Source: Candidatus Omnitrophota bacterium
Lineage (GTDB): Bacteria; Omnitrophota; Gorgyraeia; B26-G9
Assembly: GCA_043814605.1 (NCBI GenBank)
Contig: JBDRJV010000017.1
Span: 5,445 to 69,444 of the forward strand
DNA length: 64,000 nt
Direction of reading: 5' to 3'
In this document: positions 4,423 through 33,272 of the stretch, in pieces
Position numbering within the stretch: position 1 is the first letter of the stretch
Layout: each line of letters starts with the position of its first letter
Notes under the pieces: model-generated
What the model was told of the DNA's origin: nothing
What the model saw: the letters and a program-made list of their open reading frames with translations, nothing else
The model's database searches: none
Translations under genes and position numbers: made by a program

Positions 4423-6057
4423 ATGAAAAAAATCACTTTTGGCTTAAGAAGAAAACTGTATTTAGCTAGTATGCTGGTTACGATTATCGGTGCGGTAATC
4501 GTATGCTGGTATGTAATAACTTATTATCGGGTAATTATTACAGAAGATTTAGAGAAAAGGGCAATCACCTTAGCTAAAAATCTGGCACATGAATGTATCG
4601 GACCGATTATCTTAAAAGATGAAAACACTTTATTAAGTTTGGTTAATAGGATTTTAAAAGAACGTGATATAATTTATACGGCTATTTATGATAAAGACGG
4701 AAATATTCTCGTTCAAGGCGGGCCTTTTAATATAGAAAACATTCCTCAGTCAGTTAAGAAAAAATCTTTAATCACCCATGTAAATTTAGTACAAAAATAT
4801 TTATCCGCTAAGGAAAATTTAATTTATGATATTAGTGTTCCCCTGCATACTGAGGGTTCATTAGAGAACAATGATTCCGAAGACAAGAGCATAGATGAAG
4901 AAAGCCTTTTTTTCACAGGTGAAGGAAAAGAAAGTTTTAGTGTAAAAGTAGGATTAGCCAGAATTGGTATTTCTTTTAAAAACAGTAACCAATCAATTAT
5001 TATTCACCGTAATAAAATTATTTTTATAAACTTAGTGTTATACTGTATTTTTTTAATACTCATGCACTTTATTGTAAATTCAATACTTATGCCGATCAGC
5101 CTTTTATTAAAAGGAACTCAGAAAATCGGAGCCGGAGACTTGAACTATAAAGTTAGAATTAAAAGCTCAGATGAAATCGGACAACTGGCTGATTCTTTTA
5201 ATAAAATGGTAGACAATTTAAATATTTCGACAACATCCATTGAAAACCTTAACAAAGAAATTATGGAGAGAAAATTTGCCGAAGAAAAGCTAAAAGAAGC
5301 TTATCAGGAACTGAAAGAAGCCCAGCAGCAGCTTTTACAATCAAGTAAACTTTCCGCTATGGGGCAAATGGCCGCAGGCATATCCCATGAACTTAACCAG
5401 CCCTTGACCGGAATTAAAGGGTTTGCACAAATTTTAGCCATGGATTTAGGTAAAGACAGCCCCTATCTTACAGATGTAAATAATATTATTGAACAGGCAA
5501 ACCGCATGGATAGCATCATTCAAAATGTACGTTTTTTTGCGCGAAAATCAGAATTTAAATTAGAGAAATTAAATGTTAATGATCCGATAAAAAATGCAGT
5601 GAACTTACTTCAGGAGCAATTAAAAATACACAGTATCGAATTAATTTCGGAACTTGATCCGGATTTGCCGCAAATTTATGGAGATAATAATCAATTGCAG
5701 CAGATATTTTTAAATTTAGTAACTAATGGCCGCGATGCGATTGAGATGGCCCATAAATCTGAACCGGGAAAAATTATTATAAAAAGCCAGCAATGCAAAG
5801 AAGATAAATATATTTTAGTTACCTTCGAAGATAATGGCTGTGGAATTCATAAAGAAAATTTGGAAAATATTTTTAATCCTTTTTTTACAACAAAAGCACC
5901 GAATGGGGGAATGGGGTTAGGATTATCCATAGTTTATCGAATTGCTGAAAACCATAAGGCAATTATTGACGTTGAAAGTGAACAGGGGGAATTCACTATT
6001 TTTAAAATTATTTTCCCCGTTGCAGATGATTATATTGCCTTTGATAAAAAAGCTTGA
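4423..6057 (+). CDS. Sensor histidine kinase with two TM segments, extracytoplasmic domain, HAMP, HisKA, HATPase_c
   Basis: TM1 near residue 15 and TM2 near residue 200, followed by a HAMP-like linker (GDLNYKVRIKSSDEIGQLADSFNKM). H-box SHELNQPL. N/G-boxes (NLVTNGRDA, GGMGLGLSI). Confidence 0.85.
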   Translation: MKKITFGLRRKLYLASMLVTIIGAVIVCWYVITYYRVIITEDLEKRAITLAKNLAHECIGPIILKDENTLLSLVNRILKERDIIYTAIYDKDGNILVQGGPFNIENIPQSVKKKSLITHVNLVQKYLSAKENLIYDISVPLHTEGSLENNDSEDKSIDEESLFFTGEGKESFSVKVGLARIGISFKNSNQSIIIHRNKIIFINLVLYCIFLILMHFIVNSILMPISLLLKGTQKIGAGDLNYKVRIKSSDEIGQLADSFNKMVDNLNISTTSIENLNKEIMERKFAEEKLKEAYQELKEAQQQLLQSSKLSAMGQMAAGISHELNQPLTGIKGFAQILAMDLGKDSPYLTDVNNIIEQANRMDSIIQNVRFFARKSEFKLEKLNVNDPIKNAVNLLQEQLKIHSIELISELDPDLPQIYGDNNQLQQIFLNLVTNGRDAIEMAHKSEPGKIIIKSQQCKEDKYILVTFEDNGCGIHKENLENIFNPFFTTKAPNGGMGLGLSIVYRIAENHKAIIDVESEQGEFTIFKIIFPVADDYIAFDKKA

Positions 6058-6148: not shown

Positions 6149-6709
6149 ATGCCGGATACCTCTAAAGGTATGCTTTTTAATATGATCCTTAAGTTTATCC
6201 AACAAAAAGGTAAACCGGAATTAATCCATAAAATCAGCGCACAATTGGATAAACCGCTTAAATATATTGATTTTTTTGATTACCCTGTACAAGAATTAAT
6301 GCTGATTACTGAAAAAGCCGCTAAAGGTGTTTTCCCGGATAAAAAAATCGAAACAGCGTTATATACTCTCGCCCGAGAAACATTCACTATTTTAGCGCAA
6401 ACTCCTATCCTGAAAGCAATGCTACCCCGCGCAAAAAGAAATCCGATGAGTGTAGCGCAAAAAATTCCTTTTTTATACAGACAAATCAACTGTTTTGGTA
6501 ATATTTCAGTAGTTGATGTAAAAGAAAAAAGCTGCCGGATAATTTTTAAAAATTATAAAAGTTTTCCCCATTTACAACAAGGATTTTTACAACAAGCCTG
6601 TGATTATTTAGGTTTTATTACTGAAGTCAGTTTAGATATTATTAAGTTTAAAAATAATGGTAACGGGGACATTTTAACTGATTTTGATTTAAGTTTGAAA
6701 TTAAGTTGA
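6149..6709 (+). CDS. Cassette protein A1: ~186-aa conserved hypothetical, putative small-ligand sensor domain (paralog family of 4 in window)
   Basis: ORF with own RBS. 55-65% identity to 7286..7846 and 8327..8887. Conserved blocks TKGMxFN, GKPLKYIDFFDY, FKNYxSxPxLQQGFLQ, NNGNGDI. No TM segment or signal peptide. Confidence 0.7.
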   Translation: MPDTSKGMLFNMILKFIQQKGKPELIHKISAQLDKPLKYIDFFDYPVQELMLITEKAAKGVFPDKKIETALYTLARETFTILAQTPILKAMLPRAKRNPMSVAQKIPFLYRQINCFGNISVVDVKEKSCRIIFKNYKSFPHLQQGFLQQACDYLGFITEVSLDIIKFKNNGNGDILTDFDLSLKLS

Positions 6710-7285: not shown

Positions 7286-7846
7286 ATGCCGGCAACAACA
7301 AAAGGAATGTTTTTTAATGTGGCTTTTAAACTGATTACGGCAAAAGGTCACGCGGAATTAATAGAAAAAATCAGTAAAAAGCTGGGCAAACCTCTTAAAT
7401 ATATTGATTTTTTTGATTATCCCATAGAGGAATTTATGCTGATTGTCGAAGAGGCGATTAAATATATTTACCCGGATAAAAAATTCGAAGAAGCATTATA
7501 TATTTTATCCGAAGAATCATTTGACCTGATCATGCAGACCCCGATAATTAAAGCAGTATTATCCGGAGCAAAGAAAAATATGCAAAATATTGCAAAACGC
7601 ATTCCTTTTATCTATGAACAATTCAATCACTTTGGAAAAATTTCTATTATTGATTTAAAAGAAAAAAACTGTGTGATTGCTTTTAAAAATTATAAAACTT
7701 ATCCGGAACTGCAGCAGGGTTTTTTACAAAGAACCTTTGATTTTCTAAAGCTTAATCACACTGTAGAACTAAACATCCATAAATTTAAAAATAATGGAAA
7801 CGGCGATATTACCGCTGATTTTGATATAAGCTTAAAATGGGGTTAA
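7286..7846 (+). CDS. Cassette protein A2 (paralog of 6149..6709)
   Basis: Same conserved blocks and length (186 aa) as A1. Own start context. Confidence 0.7.
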   Translation: MPATTKGMFFNVAFKLITAKGHAELIEKISKKLGKPLKYIDFFDYPIEEFMLIVEEAIKYIYPDKKFEEALYILSEESFDLIMQTPIIKAVLSGAKKNMQNIAKRIPFIYEQFNHFGKISIIDLKEKNCVIAFKNYKTYPELQQGFLQRTFDFLKLNHTVELNIHKFKNNGNGDITADFDISLKWG

Positions 7847-8326: not shown

Positions 8327-8887
8327 ATGCCAGAAACAGCAAAAGGTATACTTTTTAATGTAAATTTAAAATTCATTAAAAATAAGAATAAACCAGAATT
8401 ACTGGAAAAAATCAGTAAAAAGCTGGGCAAACCGCTTAAATATATTGATTTTTTTGATTATCCTGCCCAGGAATTATTGGTTATTGTTGAGGAAATTGCT
8501 AAAAATATTTTTCCCCATAAAAAAACTGACGAAGTTTACTATTTATTAGCACAGGAAAACTTTGCCACTCTTGCGCAAACACCGATTCTAAAAGCAATGC
8601 TGCCTCGCGCAAAAAAAAATCCGCGGATTATTGCGCCAAAAATTCCGTTTTTATATAAGCAAATTTACCGCTTCGGAGAAATTTCTGTGGTTGACCTAGA
8701 AGAAAAAAGCTGCCGTATAGTTTTTAAAAATTATGTTAGTTTGCCGCAGTTACAACAGGGTTTTTTGCAAAAAGTTTCTGATGTATTAGGGTTTAATCAT
8801 AAAGTAGGCTTAAATATCCACAAATTTATAAATAATGGTAACGGAGACATAAAAGCAGATTTTGATTTAACCCTTCGCTGGGATTAA
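8327..8887 (+). CDS. Cassette protein A3 (paralog)
   Basis: 186 aa, same conserved blocks. Confidence 0.7.
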   Translation: MPETAKGILFNVNLKFIKNKNKPELLEKISKKLGKPLKYIDFFDYPAQELLVIVEEIAKNIFPHKKTDEVYYLLAQENFATLAQTPILKAMLPRAKKNPRIIAPKIPFLYKQIYRFGEISVVDLEEKSCRIVFKNYVSLPQLQQGFLQKVSDVLGFNHKVGLNIHKFINNGNGDIKADFDLTLRWD

Positions 8888-11158: not shown

Positions 11159-13345
11159 ATGATTAAAATTCGGATATTTAAAAGAGTTGTATCTATGATC
11201 TTACTGCAAGCCTTTTTGTTCGGGGCAGTTAGGTCAATCTATGTCTATGCTCAGGAACAGTCAATACTGAGTCCTCGAATAAGTTTGGGCCAGCCTGACT
11301 TGCAAACAGCAATGACCGAAAAAATGTCTTTAGCGCACTTTCCACCGTTAGATATTAGAGGAATAATAAAAGTAGGAAGAGGAGCAATAATATCAAAATC
11401 TTTGGTGACTAAAGAGGATCAAGCGTCCCAAGTTTTTTTTAAGAAAGCTTTACAGGGACTAGAACAGATCGAAACGATACAATGGTTTATAAATTTAAGA
11501 TGTGTTCTTAGATGCGATCACTGCTACTTAACACCAGAGCAGAAGAAAATGCCTCCTACCTCTTATCAGCAAGTATTAGATATTAGTAAAAAGATCAATA
11601 AACTCCCTGGGATTAAAGGAGTGGTAATTAACGGAGGGGAACCTTTTGCTAACCTTAAATTGATATATTTAGCATTAAAGGAATTAAAAGTACCAAAAAT
11701 AGGCCTTATGACTAGTGGTTTTTGGGCGAAAACACCTTTTATTACCAGTCGTGTTCTTGAAAATATAGTTAACGCTGCGGGAGATAAACACTTAGTTCTA
11801 CAAGTTAGTGTTAACGAATTTATTATGAAACAAAGAACCAAAAATAAAAAGCTTGGGTTTACTTTAGATAACTGGGTTAATATTATTAGGACTGTTGATG
11901 AACAATATTCTAAGAAAATTACTTTAGTGATTACATCTTTCTATAATGATCCAATATTCAATCAGTTAAAAAAGAAAATAGAGGACGAGGGTCTTAAAAT
12001 GCCTGAAGTCCGCAGATCAATAATGGAGTTTATTGGGCCAGCAGGAACCAACTTAGAGCGCAATGAATATAAGCAATGGGTTAATGTAGATAGCGCAGAC
12101 ATTTTTGTCCACAATAAATCTTTAGCAATCTATCCAGATGGGAAAGTAACTGTCGCTGCAGAGTTTTTAGGAGTATTAGAGGCAGGGAATATTTGTAAGC
12201 AGGGATTCCCAGACATTATTGATAATATTAATAAAGATTCATTATTCTACTTTGTTTTAACCAAGAAGGAACCAGCCAGACAATTATTAAGGATGGCTGC
12301 TCATTTTAACCCTGAGCTTGTAAATAAATGTAGCGATGAAATACTAGATGCTCCTAAAATTAGATTGCTGTTAGAAGATCCTATATTGAGATATTGTCTT
12401 AGAAAATTGGTGATTTGGAAGCTCTATAATGAACATGAACTTTTATTCATTGATGAAGATATGAAAAAATATGTCAACAAGCCTATTAGTGAGTTTATGT
12501 TGGAATTGGATAGAGAATACACTGGTCAAAAACAAGAAAAAGGAGAAGACGTAACCATAGTTAGTCTAAAAGATAAAATAATTATAGATTGGTTTGATAT
12601 TTCTAATCCAGCCACAGATTGGAAGAAAATATTTGGTAACAATAACAATCCCCAGGAACTTATAATTGGAAGTCTTTCGAGGTCTATGATCAAAGAAGCC
12701 CAAAAAAATCTTGCCAAGAATTATATCTGGGTTCAAACAATAAATCCTGCAGATACTACATATTTTATTGAGAAAGAAATTAGAGAAAAAAACATTCAAA
12801 ATGTCCGGTTAATCGATGCAGACATAAGAACGGCTATCCAGTCGATGTTTACCTTCGAGCAGATTTCTAATCTTTATGTATATTATACAGGAGCTGACAA
12901 ACGGATAGAAGAGTTTGAACGGCAAAAGTCAGGAGGAATGTATTATTCTGCTGATCCATATCTGCGGCATTTATATATAGAGATGCAGCAATCAGAATTG
13001 CAATATCCACCAAAAGGCTATTGGTTGGATTTTAGACAAGAAGGTTTATTACAGCGATTTTTAACCGTCATAAAAACAGGAGGTGTTTGTCATATCAGCA
13101 GCTGTGTTAGTGACTACATCGCTAGTGTTACCCGTATGATTGATTCTCATAAAATGGACATTCAGACTTTTGATAAGCCTAGTATGTTACCGGAAATAGG
13201 AGTCAACATAACTAATTATCTGGGGATTAGGAAAATACTACCTCTGAGTCCAAGTTGCTTAACGACCGCGAATGTTTCGATTCCTCAATTAAGAGCGAAC
13301 CCCGCTGGGACTTATCAATCGAAAATTATACAGAGTAGTATATAG
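11159..13345 (+). CDS. Atypical large radical SAM domain protein (728 aa) with N-terminal hydrophobic segment and ~450-aa C-terminal extension of unknown function
   Basis: CxxxCxxC motif CVLRCDHC at residues ~115-122, followed by a G-rich SAM-binding-like segment GVVINGGEPF. No SPASM/twitch Cys cluster seen. N-terminus MIKIRIFKRVVSMILLQAFLFGAV is hydrophobic. Confidence 0.75.
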   Translation: MIKIRIFKRVVSMILLQAFLFGAVRSIYVYAQEQSILSPRISLGQPDLQTAMTEKMSLAHFPPLDIRGIIKVGRGAIISKSLVTKEDQASQVFFKKALQGLEQIETIQWFINLRCVLRCDHCYLTPEQKKMPPTSYQQVLDISKKINKLPGIKGVVINGGEPFANLKLIYLALKELKVPKIGLMTSGFWAKTPFITSRVLENIVNAAGDKHLVLQVSVNEFIMKQRTKNKKLGFTLDNWVNIIRTVDEQYSKKITLVITSFYNDPIFNQLKKKIEDEGLKMPEVRRSIMEFIGPAGTNLERNEYKQWVNVDSADIFVHNKSLAIYPDGKVTVAAEFLGVLEAGNICKQGFPDIIDNINKDSLFYFVLTKKEPARQLLRMAAHFNPELVNKCSDEILDAPKIRLLLEDPILRYCLRKLVIWKLYNEHELLFIDEDMKKYVNKPISEFMLELDREYTGQKQEKGEDVTIVSLKDKIIIDWFDISNPATDWKKIFGNNNNPQELIIGSLSRSMIKEAQKNLAKNYIWVQTINPADTTYFIEKEIREKNIQNVRLIDADIRTAIQSMFTFEQISNLYVYYTGADKRIEEFERQKSGGMYYSADPYLRHLYIEMQQSELQYPPKGYWLDFRQEGLLQRFLTVIKTGGVCHISSCVSDYIASVTRMIDSHKMDIQTFDKPSMLPEIGVNITNYLGIRKILPLSPSCLTTANVSIPQLRANPAGTYQSKIIQSSI

Positions 13346-13386
13346 GAACGAAAAAGAAGTTAACTTCAGCAATATATAAACATATC

Positions 13387-13423
13387 AAGGGGTAGTATTC
13401 GGGCTATCCCTTTTTTATTGACT
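13387..13423 (+). repeat. Second copy of 37-bp terminator-like element (AAGGGG…CTATCCCTTTTTTATTGACT), direct repeat of 10055..10092
   Basis: About 32/37 identity with the copy at 10055..10092, including the T6-ATTGACT tail. Here the stem is degraded by a 1-nt deletion and there is no -10 element. Confidence 0.45.
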
Positions 13424-13673
13424 TAACTAGTAGCATAAGACTCCGAACCATCAGAGAGATAGTTAGTTGACTTTTCTTGCCAAAAACTTTAAACTAATTG
13501 TAATATTTTAATTTAACATTTATCATTCGTAATTTATAATTTGTCACTTGTCATTTGCCCCAAATGATGCAACATCTTTAGAGAAATCTTCGGGGGCCCG
13601 AAGAAAAACTTCTCTGGATATCCACATTCGGGATAATTTGTAATTCCCTCCAAAGGAGGGCGTGGGGTCATGG

Positions 13674-13749
13674 CGCAGTTGGGAGCGCGCCTCGTTCGCA
13701 ACGAGGAGGTCGGGGGTTCGAATCCCCCTGACTCCACCAAAAAAAATAA
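13674..13749 (+). tRNA. tRNA-Ala (anticodon CGC), CCA encoded
   Basis: Hand-folded cloverleaf: acceptor GGGGTCA/TGACTCC with G3:U70 wobble (Ala identity element), D-arm GCGC/GCGC, anticodon stem CCTCG/CGAGG with loop TTCGCAA, T-arm GGGGG-TTCGAAT-CCCCC, then ACCA. Confidence 0.85.
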
Positions 13750-13926
13750 ACCCTCGACCTCAAAAAGGGGATTTTAAGGGGAAAGATTGTTTCCCCTTAT
13801 CAGGGTATTAGAACTTCTTTGCGGAAGGAAAAGGACCAGTCCCGGCATAGGCGGGACGATAGGGGAAAACCTTAAGGGTTGTCCCCTATAGAGCGAATAA
13901 AATGAGCGATGAGGGCGGGGTTCGAA

Positions 13927-13957
13927 TCCCCCTGACTCCACCAAAAATGAGCAGAAG
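13927..13957 (+). repeat. 31-bp direct repeat of the tRNA-Ala 3' end (GGGGTTCGAATCCCCCTGACTCCACCAAAAA), att-site-like scar
   Basis: Identical to 13723..13753. Lacks the 5' half of the tRNA. Copies lie 204 bp apart. Confidence 0.6.
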
Positions 13958-13964
13958 GCTTACG

Positions 13965-14003
13965 CAACCAAAGGGAGCGTAAGCCTTTTTGCGAATTTAT
14001 ATA
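13965..14003 (+). terminator. Intrinsic terminator (11-bp perfect stem AAGGCTTACGC/GCGTAAGCCTT + T-run)
   Basis: Read directly. Lies just downstream of the tRNA 3'-end repeat. Confidence 0.65.
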
Positions 14004-14294
14004 GAGGAAGCTTTTGCAACGAGATGACTCCAATGCTCATTTTTAGTGTCCGTAGGGGAAAACGTAGTTTTCCCCTTTCGGCGCTCACCATCCTCATGGG
14101 GCTCGCTGTCACCCCTTTCCCAGAGGACTATTGCTTTTCAAGGAAAGGGAAGAGTCTTATCCTCCCTTTCCTTGGTAACCATACCTACCTAAAAAGGTGT
14201 CGACTTCGTCGACCAATAATTAAAAAAATTTTAAAAAATATTTAACGATAACCCAAGTTAGTATCCTATTTTTAAGCGATGCTATTGATTAAAG

Positions 14295-15038
14295 TTGAAG
14301 AAATATGTTATAATAAAAGCTATGAAAAATAATAAATTATATAAAATAAAAGTCTTCCTGGTTTTACTAACTGTGAGTATTTTATTTGGGTTGTGTATTA
14401 AAAATGTCTACGCTGAGGTTAATGTAGGTGCAACCCGTGAGGAAATCATTGCAACTTTCGGACAACCTACAGGAACCATGAACAGCGGGGATGAAGAAAT
14501 ATTAACTTATCCCGGAGGATTAATTGTTTTACGTGATGGAGTTGTTCAAAGTATGGATGATAAATTTAGCGAACGCTTAGCAGCACGGAAAAAAGAAAAT
14601 GAATTTGAACAAAAACAGAAAAAAAACGGGTTTATACAGTATTTGGGCCAATGGGTTACCCCGCAAAAGAAAAAGAATATTGAAGTAAATAAAAAGTTGG
14701 AAAAGAAAATTTTTGTCTATTCACAGGGAGGGCAGGAAATTGCAATAAATGAGTTACTTGTGCCGGATAAAATTACCATTGTGGATTTTTATGCTGACTG
14801 GTGCGGGCCTTGTAAAGCCATGGGGCCTAAACTGGAAAAACTGGCACTCTCTGATCCTGATGTTTATTTAAGAAAAGTTAATATTATAAAATGGGGCACC
14901 CCGGTTACAAAACAGCATCGGATCAGGGCCATTCCGGATGTACGCGTATTTACACGCAAAGGATATTTACTGGGTAAACCAACACACAGCATTCAGGAAG
15001 TGGAGCAGTTCGTTAAAGAGGCAAAAGATATCCGTTGA
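14295..15038 (+). CDS. Exported thioredoxin-family protein (signal/TM anchor + C-terminal thioredoxin fold)
   Basis: N-terminal hydrophobic segment. WCGPCK active-site motif within a thioredoxin-like block. Confidence 0.75.
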   Translation: MKKYVIIKAMKNNKLYKIKVFLVLLTVSILFGLCIKNVYAEVNVGATREEIIATFGQPTGTMNSGDEEILTYPGGLIVLRDGVVQSMDDKFSERLAARKKENEFEQKQKKNGFIQYLGQWVTPQKKKNIEVNKKLEKKIFVYSQGGQEIAINELLVPDKITIVDFYADWCGPCKAMGPKLEKLALSDPDVYLRKVNIIKWGTPVTKQHRIRAIPDVRVFTRKGYLLGKPTHSIQEVEQFVKEAKDIR

Positions 15039-32483: not shown

Positions 32484-32733
32484 GTTTAAGAATTAAGCGT
32501 TAAGAATCAAGGAAAATTTAAAAAGTAAAAATGCTTAATAATTATCTAGCAAACAAAAAACTTTTTTAGATATTTGAAATTTAATTTTGATTTACTTATG
32601 GATAGAGAGTGTATATTACACTTAATTCTTACAACTTAGTACTTATCCCGAATGAAGCAGTTTTCACAAGATGCACTTCGGGATCCTGATGCTCTTACTA
32701 CAGGGGCAACATCATTCGGTAAAACTATCTTTT

Positions 32734-32817
32734 GCGGGCGTAGTGGGAGTGGTACCTGTGCCGCCACTTATTGAAAAACATCCTGAGATTATATCAGGGC
32801 GGCAGAACATCAGCTTC
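32734..32817 (+). pseudogene. Disrupted tRNA-Gly-like fragments (5' part GCGGGCGTAGTGGGAGTGG … GGCAGAACATCAGCTTC)
   Basis: Two segments, near-identical to the 5' acceptor/D-arm and the D/anticodon-stem of the intact tRNA-Gly ~190 bp downstream, separated by ~48 nt of unrelated sequence. Confidence 0.5.
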
Positions 32818-32925
32818 TAAAATGAGTATTTAACTTACGGAGTGAAACGACGAAAGTTAATTATGCGAATTTTATCCCGCCGGATTAAAGGCGGGGCCAA
32901 GCTGTTTATTGACAAATTAATTGAT

Positions 32926-32999
32926 GCGGGCGTAGTTCAGTGGCAGAACATCAGCTTCCCAAGCTGAATACGAGGGTTCGATTCCCTTCGCCCGCTCCA
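32926..32999 (+). tRNA. tRNA-Gly (anticodon CCC), CCA encoded
   Basis: Hand-folded: acceptor GCGGGCG/CGCCCGC, D-arm GTTC/GAAC, anticodon stem TCAGC/GCTGA with loop TTCCCAA, T-arm GAGGG-TTCGATT-CCCTT, then TCCA. Confidence 0.85.
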
Positions 33000-33118
33000 G
33001 AAGATGGAACTCCTAAGGGAATCGAAGCAAATGAGCGCCGACCCTAGGGAGGAAAAGCGAGCAGGATTGCGAGCGTCAGCGAATGCAGGGGAGCCTACGC
33101 AGAGAGCAATACGATGTT

Positions 33119-33177
33119 GCGAACGTAGTGGGCGATTTCCTTCGCCCGCTCCAGAAGATTGAACTCCTAAGGGAATC
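33119..33177 (+). pseudogene. Internally deleted tRNA-Gly pseudo-copy plus repeat of the tRNA's 3' flank
   Basis: GCGAACGTAGT|GGGCGATTTCCTTCGCCCGCTCCA reproduces the 5' acceptor and 3' T-arm/acceptor with the middle missing. 44-bp repeat (2 mismatches) of 32981..33027 including the downstream AAGGGAATC box. Confidence 0.55.
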
Positions 33178-33272
33178 AAAATTTATCCTGTATCATGCGA
33201 AGAATTGGTACAGGGAAAAAAACATTTTTTTGTATGAGATAATTAAGAGTAAATTAATTAGCAGGGGAAACA

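Follow-up and report, generated by a model that had tools for sequence, protein, structure and literature searches.

In the 64-kb stretch of Omnitrophota DNA analysed here (the window), the gene for tRNA-Ala(CGC) is followed by two structured, gene-less cassettes, A and B. The cassettes belong to a family that is conserved in related uncultivated Omnitrophota, and they are not the debris of a lost prophage. As to their nature, we see an even chance that they form an array of miniature, non-autonomous integrative cassettes at a recombination hotspot in the T arm of the tRNA gene, co-transcribed with the tRNA up to an intrinsic terminator at positions 13951-13992. No paper on such cassettes, or on tRNA-linked elements of Omnitrophota, was found in the literature.

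The duplicated 3' end of tRNA-Ala(CGC)

The tRNA-Ala(CGC) gene (13664-13739) has an encoded CCA and a G3:U70 pair and was identified by ARAGORN and by Rfam (RF00005, 68.9 bits). It is located on the + strand, as are the repeat copies, remnants, cassettes and terminator described below. The surrounding non-coding interval measures 976 bp (13346-14321), and position 13674, where the initial annotation let the feature start, falls inside the tRNA gene. The last 26 nt of the tRNA together with AAAAA constitute an exact 31-nt repeat, GGGGTTCGAATCCCCCTGACTCCACCAAAAA, with only two occurrences. An exact repeat search places them at 13713-13743 (tRNA positions 50-76 plus AAAAA) and at 13917-13947. No such repeat is expected by chance (100 shuffles), and the duplication reported in the initial annotation is thus real. 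Its spacing of 204 nt was also correct, which leaves 173 bp between the copies, while the second copy had been placed 10 nt too far to the right (13927-13957).

The tRNA-Ala 3' fragment that closes cassette A is longer than the exact repeat and spans 13906-13947. Weaker similarity extends from the exact part (13917-13947) into a diverged 5' part (13906-13916), where CGATGAGGGC-GGGG aligns with CGAGGAGGTCGGGGG of the tRNA. The resulting 42-nt alignment, exact over its 3' 31 nt and with two mismatches and one gap in its 5' 11 nt, scores 68, compared with 14.6 +/- 2.8 for shuffles. As GAGGGCG precedes both copies, we also considered a whole tRNA gene with an internal deletion; the contiguous variable-loop alignment explains the second copy better. 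A third, degenerate tRNA-Ala remnant follows at 14013-14032, in which the anticodon loop/stem TTTGCAACGAG is succeeded by the acceptor strand TGACTCCA and the intervening part is deleted. Its chained score of 33 (shuffles 19.8 +/- 4.2, 0/300 as high) comes from a test that was designed after the pattern had been noticed.

Cassettes A and B and their relatives

Cassette A (body 13744-13916) is non-coding and contains no gene remnant. It comprises an inverted copy of the variable loop and T stem (13749-13761), hairpin h1 (13775-13799), a conserved GAACTTCTTTGCGGAAGGA (13811-13829), a small hairpin (13839-13857), hairpin h2 (13859-13889) and an AGAGCG..AAAATGAGC motif (13891-13908). Cassette B (14034-14215) is truncated at its 3' end and consists, in this order, of TGCTCATTTTTAGTG, which pairs with 13939-13953, the motif GTGTCCG, and hairpins at 14054-14076, 14139-14175 and 14199-14213. 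Its closing tRNA copy is lost in the window and present in a homologue, L003.

Scanning metagenome contigs with the last 25 nt of tRNA-Ala yielded three loci, L003, L004 and L005. All matches fell within a tRNA-Ala gene or its downstream 3' fragment, and each locus consists of a tRNA-Ala(CGC) gene followed by homologous non-coding sequence. In L004, two tandem A-type units (A1 and A2) are located directly behind the tRNA, each ending ...CCCCCTGACTCCACCA. Two loci from other samples, L014 and L015, equal L004 exactly over the compared 1 kb from the tRNA. The genome of L020 has a single cassette A (5169-5392) behind its tRNA, which ends GTTCGAATCCCCCTGACTCCACCATT and is followed some 130 nt further by trx, the gene for a thioredoxin-like protein. 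Cassette A of the window is homologous to A1 and A2 of L004/L014 and to cassette A of L020; blastn among the sequences compared here gave E = 2.5e-9 and 6.6e-4 for L004. L003 carries a complete B-type unit between the tRNA and the fragment GAATCCGCCTGACTCCACCAAAAAA, followed by a terminator, and L005 carries the 5' part of cassette B followed by an open reading frame (ORF) for a reverse transcriptase (RT). Cassette B matched these two loci with E = 5.8e-20 and 7.6e-6, respectively.

A comparison with related genomes at this tRNA had been recommended in the initial annotation, and it shows that both the cassette content and the tRNA-trx interval vary. The tRNA-Ala(CGC) is followed by A-B in the window, by B alone in L003, by the 5' part of B and the RT ORF in L005, by A1-A2 in L004, L014 and L015, by A alone in L020, and by no cassette in L009 and L010. 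Removing cassette A and one repeat copy from the window would give the arrangement of L003 and L005, and on their sequence these two look like an empty site for cassette A, at a distance too great to exclude a deletion between repeats.

In the window, trx (14322-15038, + strand; Pfam PF00085) codes for a secreted thioredoxin-like protein and is the conserved right flank of the hotspot. A promoter-like site for this gene (TTGATT-18-TATAAT with TG, 14285-14314, + strand) marks the right boundary of the cassette array. Homologues of trx are located downstream of tRNA-Ala(CGC) in four other genomes (L009, L010, L014/L015 and L020) at distances of 0.1-4.3 kb. The 3-kb interval of L009 holds two decayed 3' halves of its own tRNA-Ala, which bound small genes; that of L010 contains genes and no detectable tRNA remnant. 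With this content, the interval between tRNA-Ala(CGC) and trx is a variable hotspot across the lineage. L014 (7790-7930; L015 4490-4630) additionally has a decayed whole tRNA-Ala gene with a deleted T-loop and a diverged 5' half, in the position of the functional tRNA of L020. It is the copy nearest to trx and shares a 61-nt block, 100% identical, with the functional copy 4 kb upstream.

Hairpins and the terminator

Every hairpin named in the initial annotation is present, and those at 13775-13799, 13859-13889, 14054-14076, 14139-14175 and 14199-14213 were confirmed. The strongest hairpin had been missed. It is an 11-bp perfect stem at 13955-13987 (arms 13955-13965 and 13977-13987) with an A run before it and TTTTT after it, and constitutes an intrinsic terminator at 13951-13992 (-26.5 kcal/mol, z = -7.0). 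A simple terminator scan misses it because its loop has 11 nt. The earlier supposition that the hairpins might be ordinary terminators holds for this one alone, as its G+C-rich 11-bp stem and TTTTT resemble a Rho-independent terminator. On the + strand, no T run follows the GGGGAAA hairpins or those at 14139-14175 and 14199-14213, and all of these are conserved cassette parts. Between tRNA-Ala and cassette A there is no terminator, and the strong one is located directly 3' of the repeat copy, which suggests that the cassette is transcribed as a 3' trailer of the tRNA.

So much structure in one place is indeed unusual, as had been stated. For the region 13740-14300 (561 nt), folding gave z = -7.3 (+ strand) and z = -7.6 (- strand). 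In a census of perfect hairpins (stem of at least 9 bp, loop of 3-13, at least 4 G/C), four of the six sites in 64 kb fall within 13775-14171, i.e., within about 400 bp. The pattern GGGGAAA-N3-12-TTTCCCC occurs twice in the window, with 0.01 expected; both occurrences are located behind tRNA-Ala, and a search for this hairpin family at other loci of the window, as proposed earlier, gave no further member. The similarity between 13856-13908 and 14034-14080 (score 31, shuffles 17.4 +/- 2.3) was considered as a pair of terminal inverted repeats. This interpretation was rejected, since the similarity is better explained by the TAGGGGAAAAC hairpin and the AAAATGAGC motif that both cassettes have in common.

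Covariation within the cassettes

Four A copies from three genomes (the window, L020, L004 A1 with the insertion in its loop removed, and L004 A2) were aligned over three hairpins with 29 pairs. Here, 94.6% of the cells are paired, and nine of the 29 pairs show changes on both sides. None of 500 shuffles reached this number, and structures slid by 1-3 columns gave 0-3 such pairs. Three G-U cells are valid on the + (tRNA) strand only, as they correspond to C-A mismatches on the opposite strand, which is weak evidence that the tRNA-sense strand is the one that folds. L004 A1 has approximately 170 extra nt in the loop of h2, with the stem kept. In cassette B, the last hairpin reads GTCGAC/GTCGAC in the window and GTGGCC/GGCCAC in L003, and both differing pairs are compensated. 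The stem that joins the tRNA end to the start of cassette B covaries as well (TGAGCA/TGCTCA in the window, TAAA/TTTA in L003, TAT/ATA in L005). The compensatory changes indicate that the cassettes are under selection and argue against a functionless deletion remnant.

The closing fragment is not a working tRNA mimic. Its T stem is lost in L004 (GCGAG-TTCGATT-ACCCC and GACG-TTTGATT-CCCCC), a 5' strand that pairs with TGACTCC is absent from every Ala cassette, and neither ARAGORN nor Rfam detects a tRNA-like or transfer-messenger RNA (tmRNA) gene at this place. In all copies, the fragment is exact over its final 16 nt.

A related cassette behind tRNA-Gly(CCC)

The only other tRNA gene in the window, tRNA-Gly(CCC) (32926-32999, + strand; ARAGORN and Rfam), is found in a similar situation. 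It is followed on the same strand by a non-coding cassette of 133 nt (33000-33132) and by a copy of its own end (33133-33180), which runs from the T-loop (CGATT) through CCA and 27 nt of flank. The repeat, 32979-33026 versus 33133-33180, comprises 48 nt with 94% identity. The 3' domain of this cassette (33078-33135) is homologous to that of the tRNA-Ala cassette in L003, with 79% identity over 58 nt (score 56, shuffles 17.1 +/- 2.2; blastn E = 2e-8), and the small hairpin in this domain shows a compensatory change, GCAAT/GTTGC versus GCATC/GATGC. Judged by this homology, one cassette domain is joined to a Gly end in the window and to an Ala end in L003, in both cases at the T-loop. Together with the T stem that is not kept in L004, such junctions with two tRNAs fit an arrangement with element DNA to the left and host tRNA to the right of the crossover.

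Upstream of the same gene, by 192 nt, there is a partial 5' copy of tRNA-Gly (32732-32817, + strand), in which the acceptor 5' strand (32734-32744) and positions 17-33 (32801-32817) are separated by about 56 inserted nt. The copy stops in the anticodon loop and may be the scar of a recombination on the 5' side.

Some smaller sequence features accompany the two tRNA loci. Just 3' of tRNA-Ala, part of the T arm recurs in inverted orientation (13749-13761 versus 13706-13718, 12/13 complementary), and a matching copy is found 3' of tRNA-Gly (33015-33026 versus 32977-32988, 12/12 complementary). Each tRNA end is in this way enclosed between the arms of an inverted repeat, whose spacer measures 26-30 nt. 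The cassettes of L004, L014 and L020 have GGG-ATGAGAA-CCC in this place. A motif (A)AAATGAG(C/T) is located at or near cassette and fragment junctions of both loci (13900-13908, 13943-13951, 14034-14042 in inverted orientation, 33029-33036 and 32819-32827), and ATGAGC/ATGAGT also occurs 3' of hairpin h2 in the L004 and L020 cassettes. The leader of tRNA-Ala contains two further hairpins, TCTTCGGGGGCCCGAAGA (13587-13604) and CCCTCCAAAGGAGGG (13646-13660), the second of which stops 3 nt before the 5' end of the tRNA.

Recombination anatomy and a proposed mechanism

The left boundaries of six repeats from four genomes all fall into the T arm, within tRNA positions 50-61. They are located at position 50 for the Ala repeat of the window, at 53 for L020 and for L004 A1 and A2 (the latter two with exact identity from 61), and at 56 for L003 and the Gly repeat of the window. 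The right boundaries range from CCA+0 to CCA+27. Integrases that target tRNA genes cross over at symmetric sublocations, the anticodon loop and the T-loop, and different tRNAs are used inside one integrase subfamily (bioRxiv 10.1101/2020.11.02.365908). Repeats that begin in the T arm match the T-loop sublocation of these enzymes. The overall anatomy comprises an intact proximal gene, a distal 3' fragment, identity from the T arm past CCA, and a strong terminator after the distal copy. Tandem accretion and scattered partial tRNAs are known from other tRNA-targeting elements (bioRxiv 10.1101/2020.12.28.424599; PMC9897764).

Every related cassette carries a duplicated segment from the T-loop, or adjacent to it, through CCA. 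We propose that a cassette would start out as a small circle and integrate by site-specific recombination of the Campbell type, crossing over within the T arm; the catalyst would presumably be a tyrosine recombinase encoded elsewhere. On the DNA level, the T stem-loop would present inverted repeats around a 7-bp spacer, much like the core site of an integrase. New cassettes would be inserted next to the tRNA and thereby displace older ones outward, recombination between repeats would delete or duplicate units, and gene conversion from the nearby tRNA may keep the repeat exact. As part of a long 3' trailer of the tRNA transcript, the hairpins would then be selected as folded single strands. The junctions implied by this scheme would be an empty site in which the tRNA end ...CCACCAAAAA is joined to TGAGCAGAAGG, and a circular form with ...GCGATGAGGGC, the 31-nt core and AAATAAACCCTCG. 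In this scheme, the cassettes would represent the recombinase-dependent counterpart of miniature inverted-repeat transposable elements (MITEs) and cis-mobilisable elements (CIMEs) rather than a random prophage leftover.

Searches for known RNA families and for retroelements

Rfam searches at the gathering threshold and with E up to 10 at both tRNA loci, and with E up to 1 for L003-L005, returned only tRNAs and noise. A tmRNA, including the two-piece form, was considered since the fragment has an Ala acceptor strand with U70; it was rejected, as ARAGORN was negative and there is no 5' partner strand. The Rfam model tmRNA_permuted reached 11-19 bits, compared with a threshold of 47 bits.

In L005, the 5' part of cassette B is followed at a distance of about 88 nt by a group II intron-type RT ORF (745-1260). 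This truncated ORF is the sole mobile-element gene beside the related tRNA loci. It is 63% identical to its best matches, which are group II intron proteins and fragments with an RVT_1 domain. Upstream of the ORF no ribozyme domains were found; the contig measures 1.26 kb and ends inside the ORF, with its 3' side unseen. Probably, this RT is a truncated intron that landed in the hotspot. Together with the GTGTCCG that follows a terminator-like hairpin in cassette B, it led us to consider a group II or ORF-less intron as well; neither D1-D4 nor D5 was found, and a canonical group II intron used as positive control (L006) scored 102 and 47 bits. On a further contig from ENA (L007, 1-8143), a 2081-bp unit with a 261-aa RT fragment and IS3-like transposase genes is present in four head-to-tail copies, which could result from the misassembly of a circular or multicopy element.

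Weighing the explanations

Several observations weigh against an integrative origin of the cassettes. No recombinase gene is in view: of the 52 ORFs in the window with 150 aa or more, 47 were examined and include no integrase, transposase or RT, and none of the three is called beside the tRNA in L009, L010, L014 and L020. An element carrying the 31-bp core, as the initial annotation had envisaged, is missing from the viral collection (0 exact matches of the 31-mer and of the 25-mer), where the cassette B motif also has 0 matches. Neither a free or excised attP-bearing form, looked for in viral contigs and in the metagenome scan, nor an autonomous relative of the cassettes was found. Two matches of cassette motifs in the viral collection, in a 1504-aa ORF (L008) and in L021, whose flanks do not match, are chance hits in unrelated coding regions. 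In the 64 kb, blastn and motif searches gave no cassette away from the two tRNA loci. Some details of the related loci also resemble the outcome of rearrangements and of changes within a tandem array more than that of a clean integration. The trx promoter of both L014 and L020 directly adjoins a truncated cassette start, which suggests that arrays shrink by deletion. The decayed tRNA of L014 at the ancestral position points to rearrangement and gene conversion, not to simple integration. If a cassette moved from tRNA-Gly to tRNA-Ala through simple integration, a chimeric tRNA would result. Covariation and strand-specific G-U pairs speak for selection at the RNA level, for which an att-site model has no need. 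Finally, cassette A is located immediately 3' of tRNA-Ala(CGC), between the tRNA and trx, even though the Trx proteins of the cassette A-bearing genomes are only 48-49% identical to that of the window (L020 48%); vertical inheritance under selection fits this persistence as well as repeated insertion does.

The main alternative is that the array is a vertically inherited set of tRNA-linked structured RNAs expressed from the tRNA promoter. The terminal fragment would then be a processing or 3'-protecting signal, unequal crossing-over between repeats would set the copy number, and conversion from the tRNA would keep the fragment exact. We consider this account possible, albeit doubtful. It agrees with the covariation in three hairpins and the three G-U cells, with the expansion in the h2 loop of L004 A1 that spares the stem, with the absence of a terminator before and its presence after the cassette, with three deeply diverged genomes having the cassette between tRNA-Ala(CGC) and trx, and with the exact last 16 nt of the fragment. 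Against it, the fragment has conserved neither its T stem nor its acceptor pairing, so that tRNA mimicry is not the constraint; cassette content and order vary freely between genomes, with none in L009 and L010; one 3' domain is joined to two different tRNA ends; and no Rfam family was detected even at E up to 10. It is unlikely that a large prophage or island at the tRNA was later deleted almost completely, with the 173 bp as its functionless left and right ends. The initial annotation had proposed such a relic, and of this proposal the anatomy of recombination at a tRNA 3' end stands, as does the direct repeat in attL/attR layout; in L009, moreover, gene-carrying segments at the same hotspot are bounded by decayed tRNA halves. 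That the 173 bp are a leftover is, however, not supported. A short module with identical hairpin order is conserved in three genomes and in tandem in one of them, which independent deletions would not repeat, compensatory changes speak for selection, no gene remnant is found inside, and a related gene-less cassette is located at tRNA-Gly.

A purely local event, in which slippage or unequal exchange duplicated the tRNA 3' end in tandem along with its trailer and neither mobility nor function is involved, is very unlikely. The repeats of tRNA-Gly and L014 do run 27-65 nt past CCA, as a segmental duplication would, and A1 and A2 of L004 are tandem paralogues. Yet the DNA that separates the repeats shows no relation to the tRNA or its native trailer and is conserved across genomes and tRNA identities; in addition, identity is sharp on the 3' side and lost 5' of a point in the T arm, and the hairpins covary. 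Least probable of all we regard a retroelement origin, in which the cassettes would be ORF-less derivatives of the element that encodes the L005 RT and would be mobilised by it. The short distance between the 5' part of cassette B and the RT ORF is in favour of this idea, as is the 11-mer TACGCAGAGAG just upstream of that ORF, which recurs in the tRNA-Gly cassette (5/500 shuffles as high). On the other hand, the contig stops inside the ORF, an RT relative (62% identical) is part of the canonical intron L006 with D1-D4 and D5, no cassette has a ribozyme domain, the similarity to intron DIVa/DV is not significant, and the L005 RT may simply belong to a 5'-truncated intron that landed in the hotspot.

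Likeness to known systems

Read as miniature integrative units, the cassettes share much with the attL/attR scars of elements whose tyrosine integrases target tRNA genes at the T-loop sublocation. They are enclosed between an intact tRNA and a 3' fragment, the repeat runs from the T-loop or T stem through CCA, foreign DNA lies to the left and host DNA to the right of the repeat, and several scars follow each other at one tRNA. Unlike such scars, the cassettes have inserts of only 154-440 bp with no gene, no integrase and no free attP-bearing element found, they are conserved across distant genomes, and their hairpins covary. CIMEs, which are flanked by att sites and mobilised in trans, come close: att-like sites are present on both sides, recombination and transfer genes are absent, and units occur in tandem with others. 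CIMEs are, however, kilobase-scale decay products of known integrative and conjugative or integrative mobilisable elements, whereas the cassettes are about ten times smaller, have no parent in view and are selected for structure. The tycheposons of Prochlorococcus likewise insert successively at one tRNA and leave partial tRNAs outward, the older ones being more decayed, as in L009 and the third remnant of the window. They carry integrases and cargo genes, while most cassettes described here are gene-less.

By analogy only, integron arrays and clusters of attC sites lacking integron-integrases (CALINs) are also comparable. They consist of small promoter-less units in tandem, each closed by a segment resembling a recombination site, their structure is conserved above sequence, and arrays occur with no integrase nearby. 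The analogy ends with the attC R/L boxes and IntI, which were not seen here, with the closing segment, which is the 3' end of a tRNA, and with the entry site, which is the tRNA gene and not attI. A MITE was rejected. The repeats, at 16, 17, 26, 31 and 48 nt, do not have the constant length of a target-site duplication, and there are no terminal inverted repeats at the cassette ends, both of which argue against a transposase. Dispersed hairpins similar to repetitive extragenic palindromic (REP) sequences or bacterial interspersed mosaic elements (BIMEs) were also dismissed, as blastn and motif searches located the cassettes at two tRNA loci only in 64 kb. Among tRNA-like processing signals, such as the t-elements of plant mitochondria and mascRNA, a tRNA-derived end segment could mark a processing site; the cassette fragment differs from these in having neither a conserved acceptor partner nor a conserved T stem.

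Genomic context

The window represents ordinary chromosome, with genes for DnaE, GuaA, HisS, EF-P, AccBC, ThiC and ThyX. The neighbour of tRNA-Ala at 11159-13345 codes for a 728-aa radical-SAM protein with a weak methyltransferase-like region, for which a search of 5.8 billion proteins found no homologue but itself, so that it was of no use as a synteny probe; the genome-contig scan with it gave just one weak, irrelevant match (L002). Both this protein and the Trx protein of the window show 100% identity to proteins that NCBI lists for a metagenome-assembled genome on a 73.5-kb contig. Further upstream, three tandem ORFs of 186 aa are spaced by about 1.1 kb (6149-6709, 7286-7846 and 8327-8887); the two scanned with Pfam, the first and the third, match DUF2378.

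Implications

Fragments of tRNA 3' ends are usually read as scars of prophages or islands. Here, both tRNA genes of a 64-kb housekeeping stretch precede structured, gene-less cassettes. We tentatively entertain the idea that Omnitrophota harbour an undescribed class of gene-less cassettes of 150-450 bp that are specific for the 3' side of tRNAs, arranged in arrays, bring along or regenerate the copy from the T-loop onward, are selected for structure, are driven in trans by a recombinase or possibly an RT, and are expressed as tRNA trailers. If that class exists, it would in effect be an integron-like or MITE-like system with the T arm of a tRNA as docking site. If the cassettes are mobile, they would be the smallest tRNA-targeting integrative units described, and recombinase-dependent elements could have non-autonomous parasites in the way that transposons have their MITEs. 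If they are RNA genes, they would form a new family of structured RNAs linked to tRNAs, in a phylum that is poorly known and mostly uncultivated. In either case, such fragments should not be scored as prophage boundaries or pseudo-tRNAs in genome annotation.

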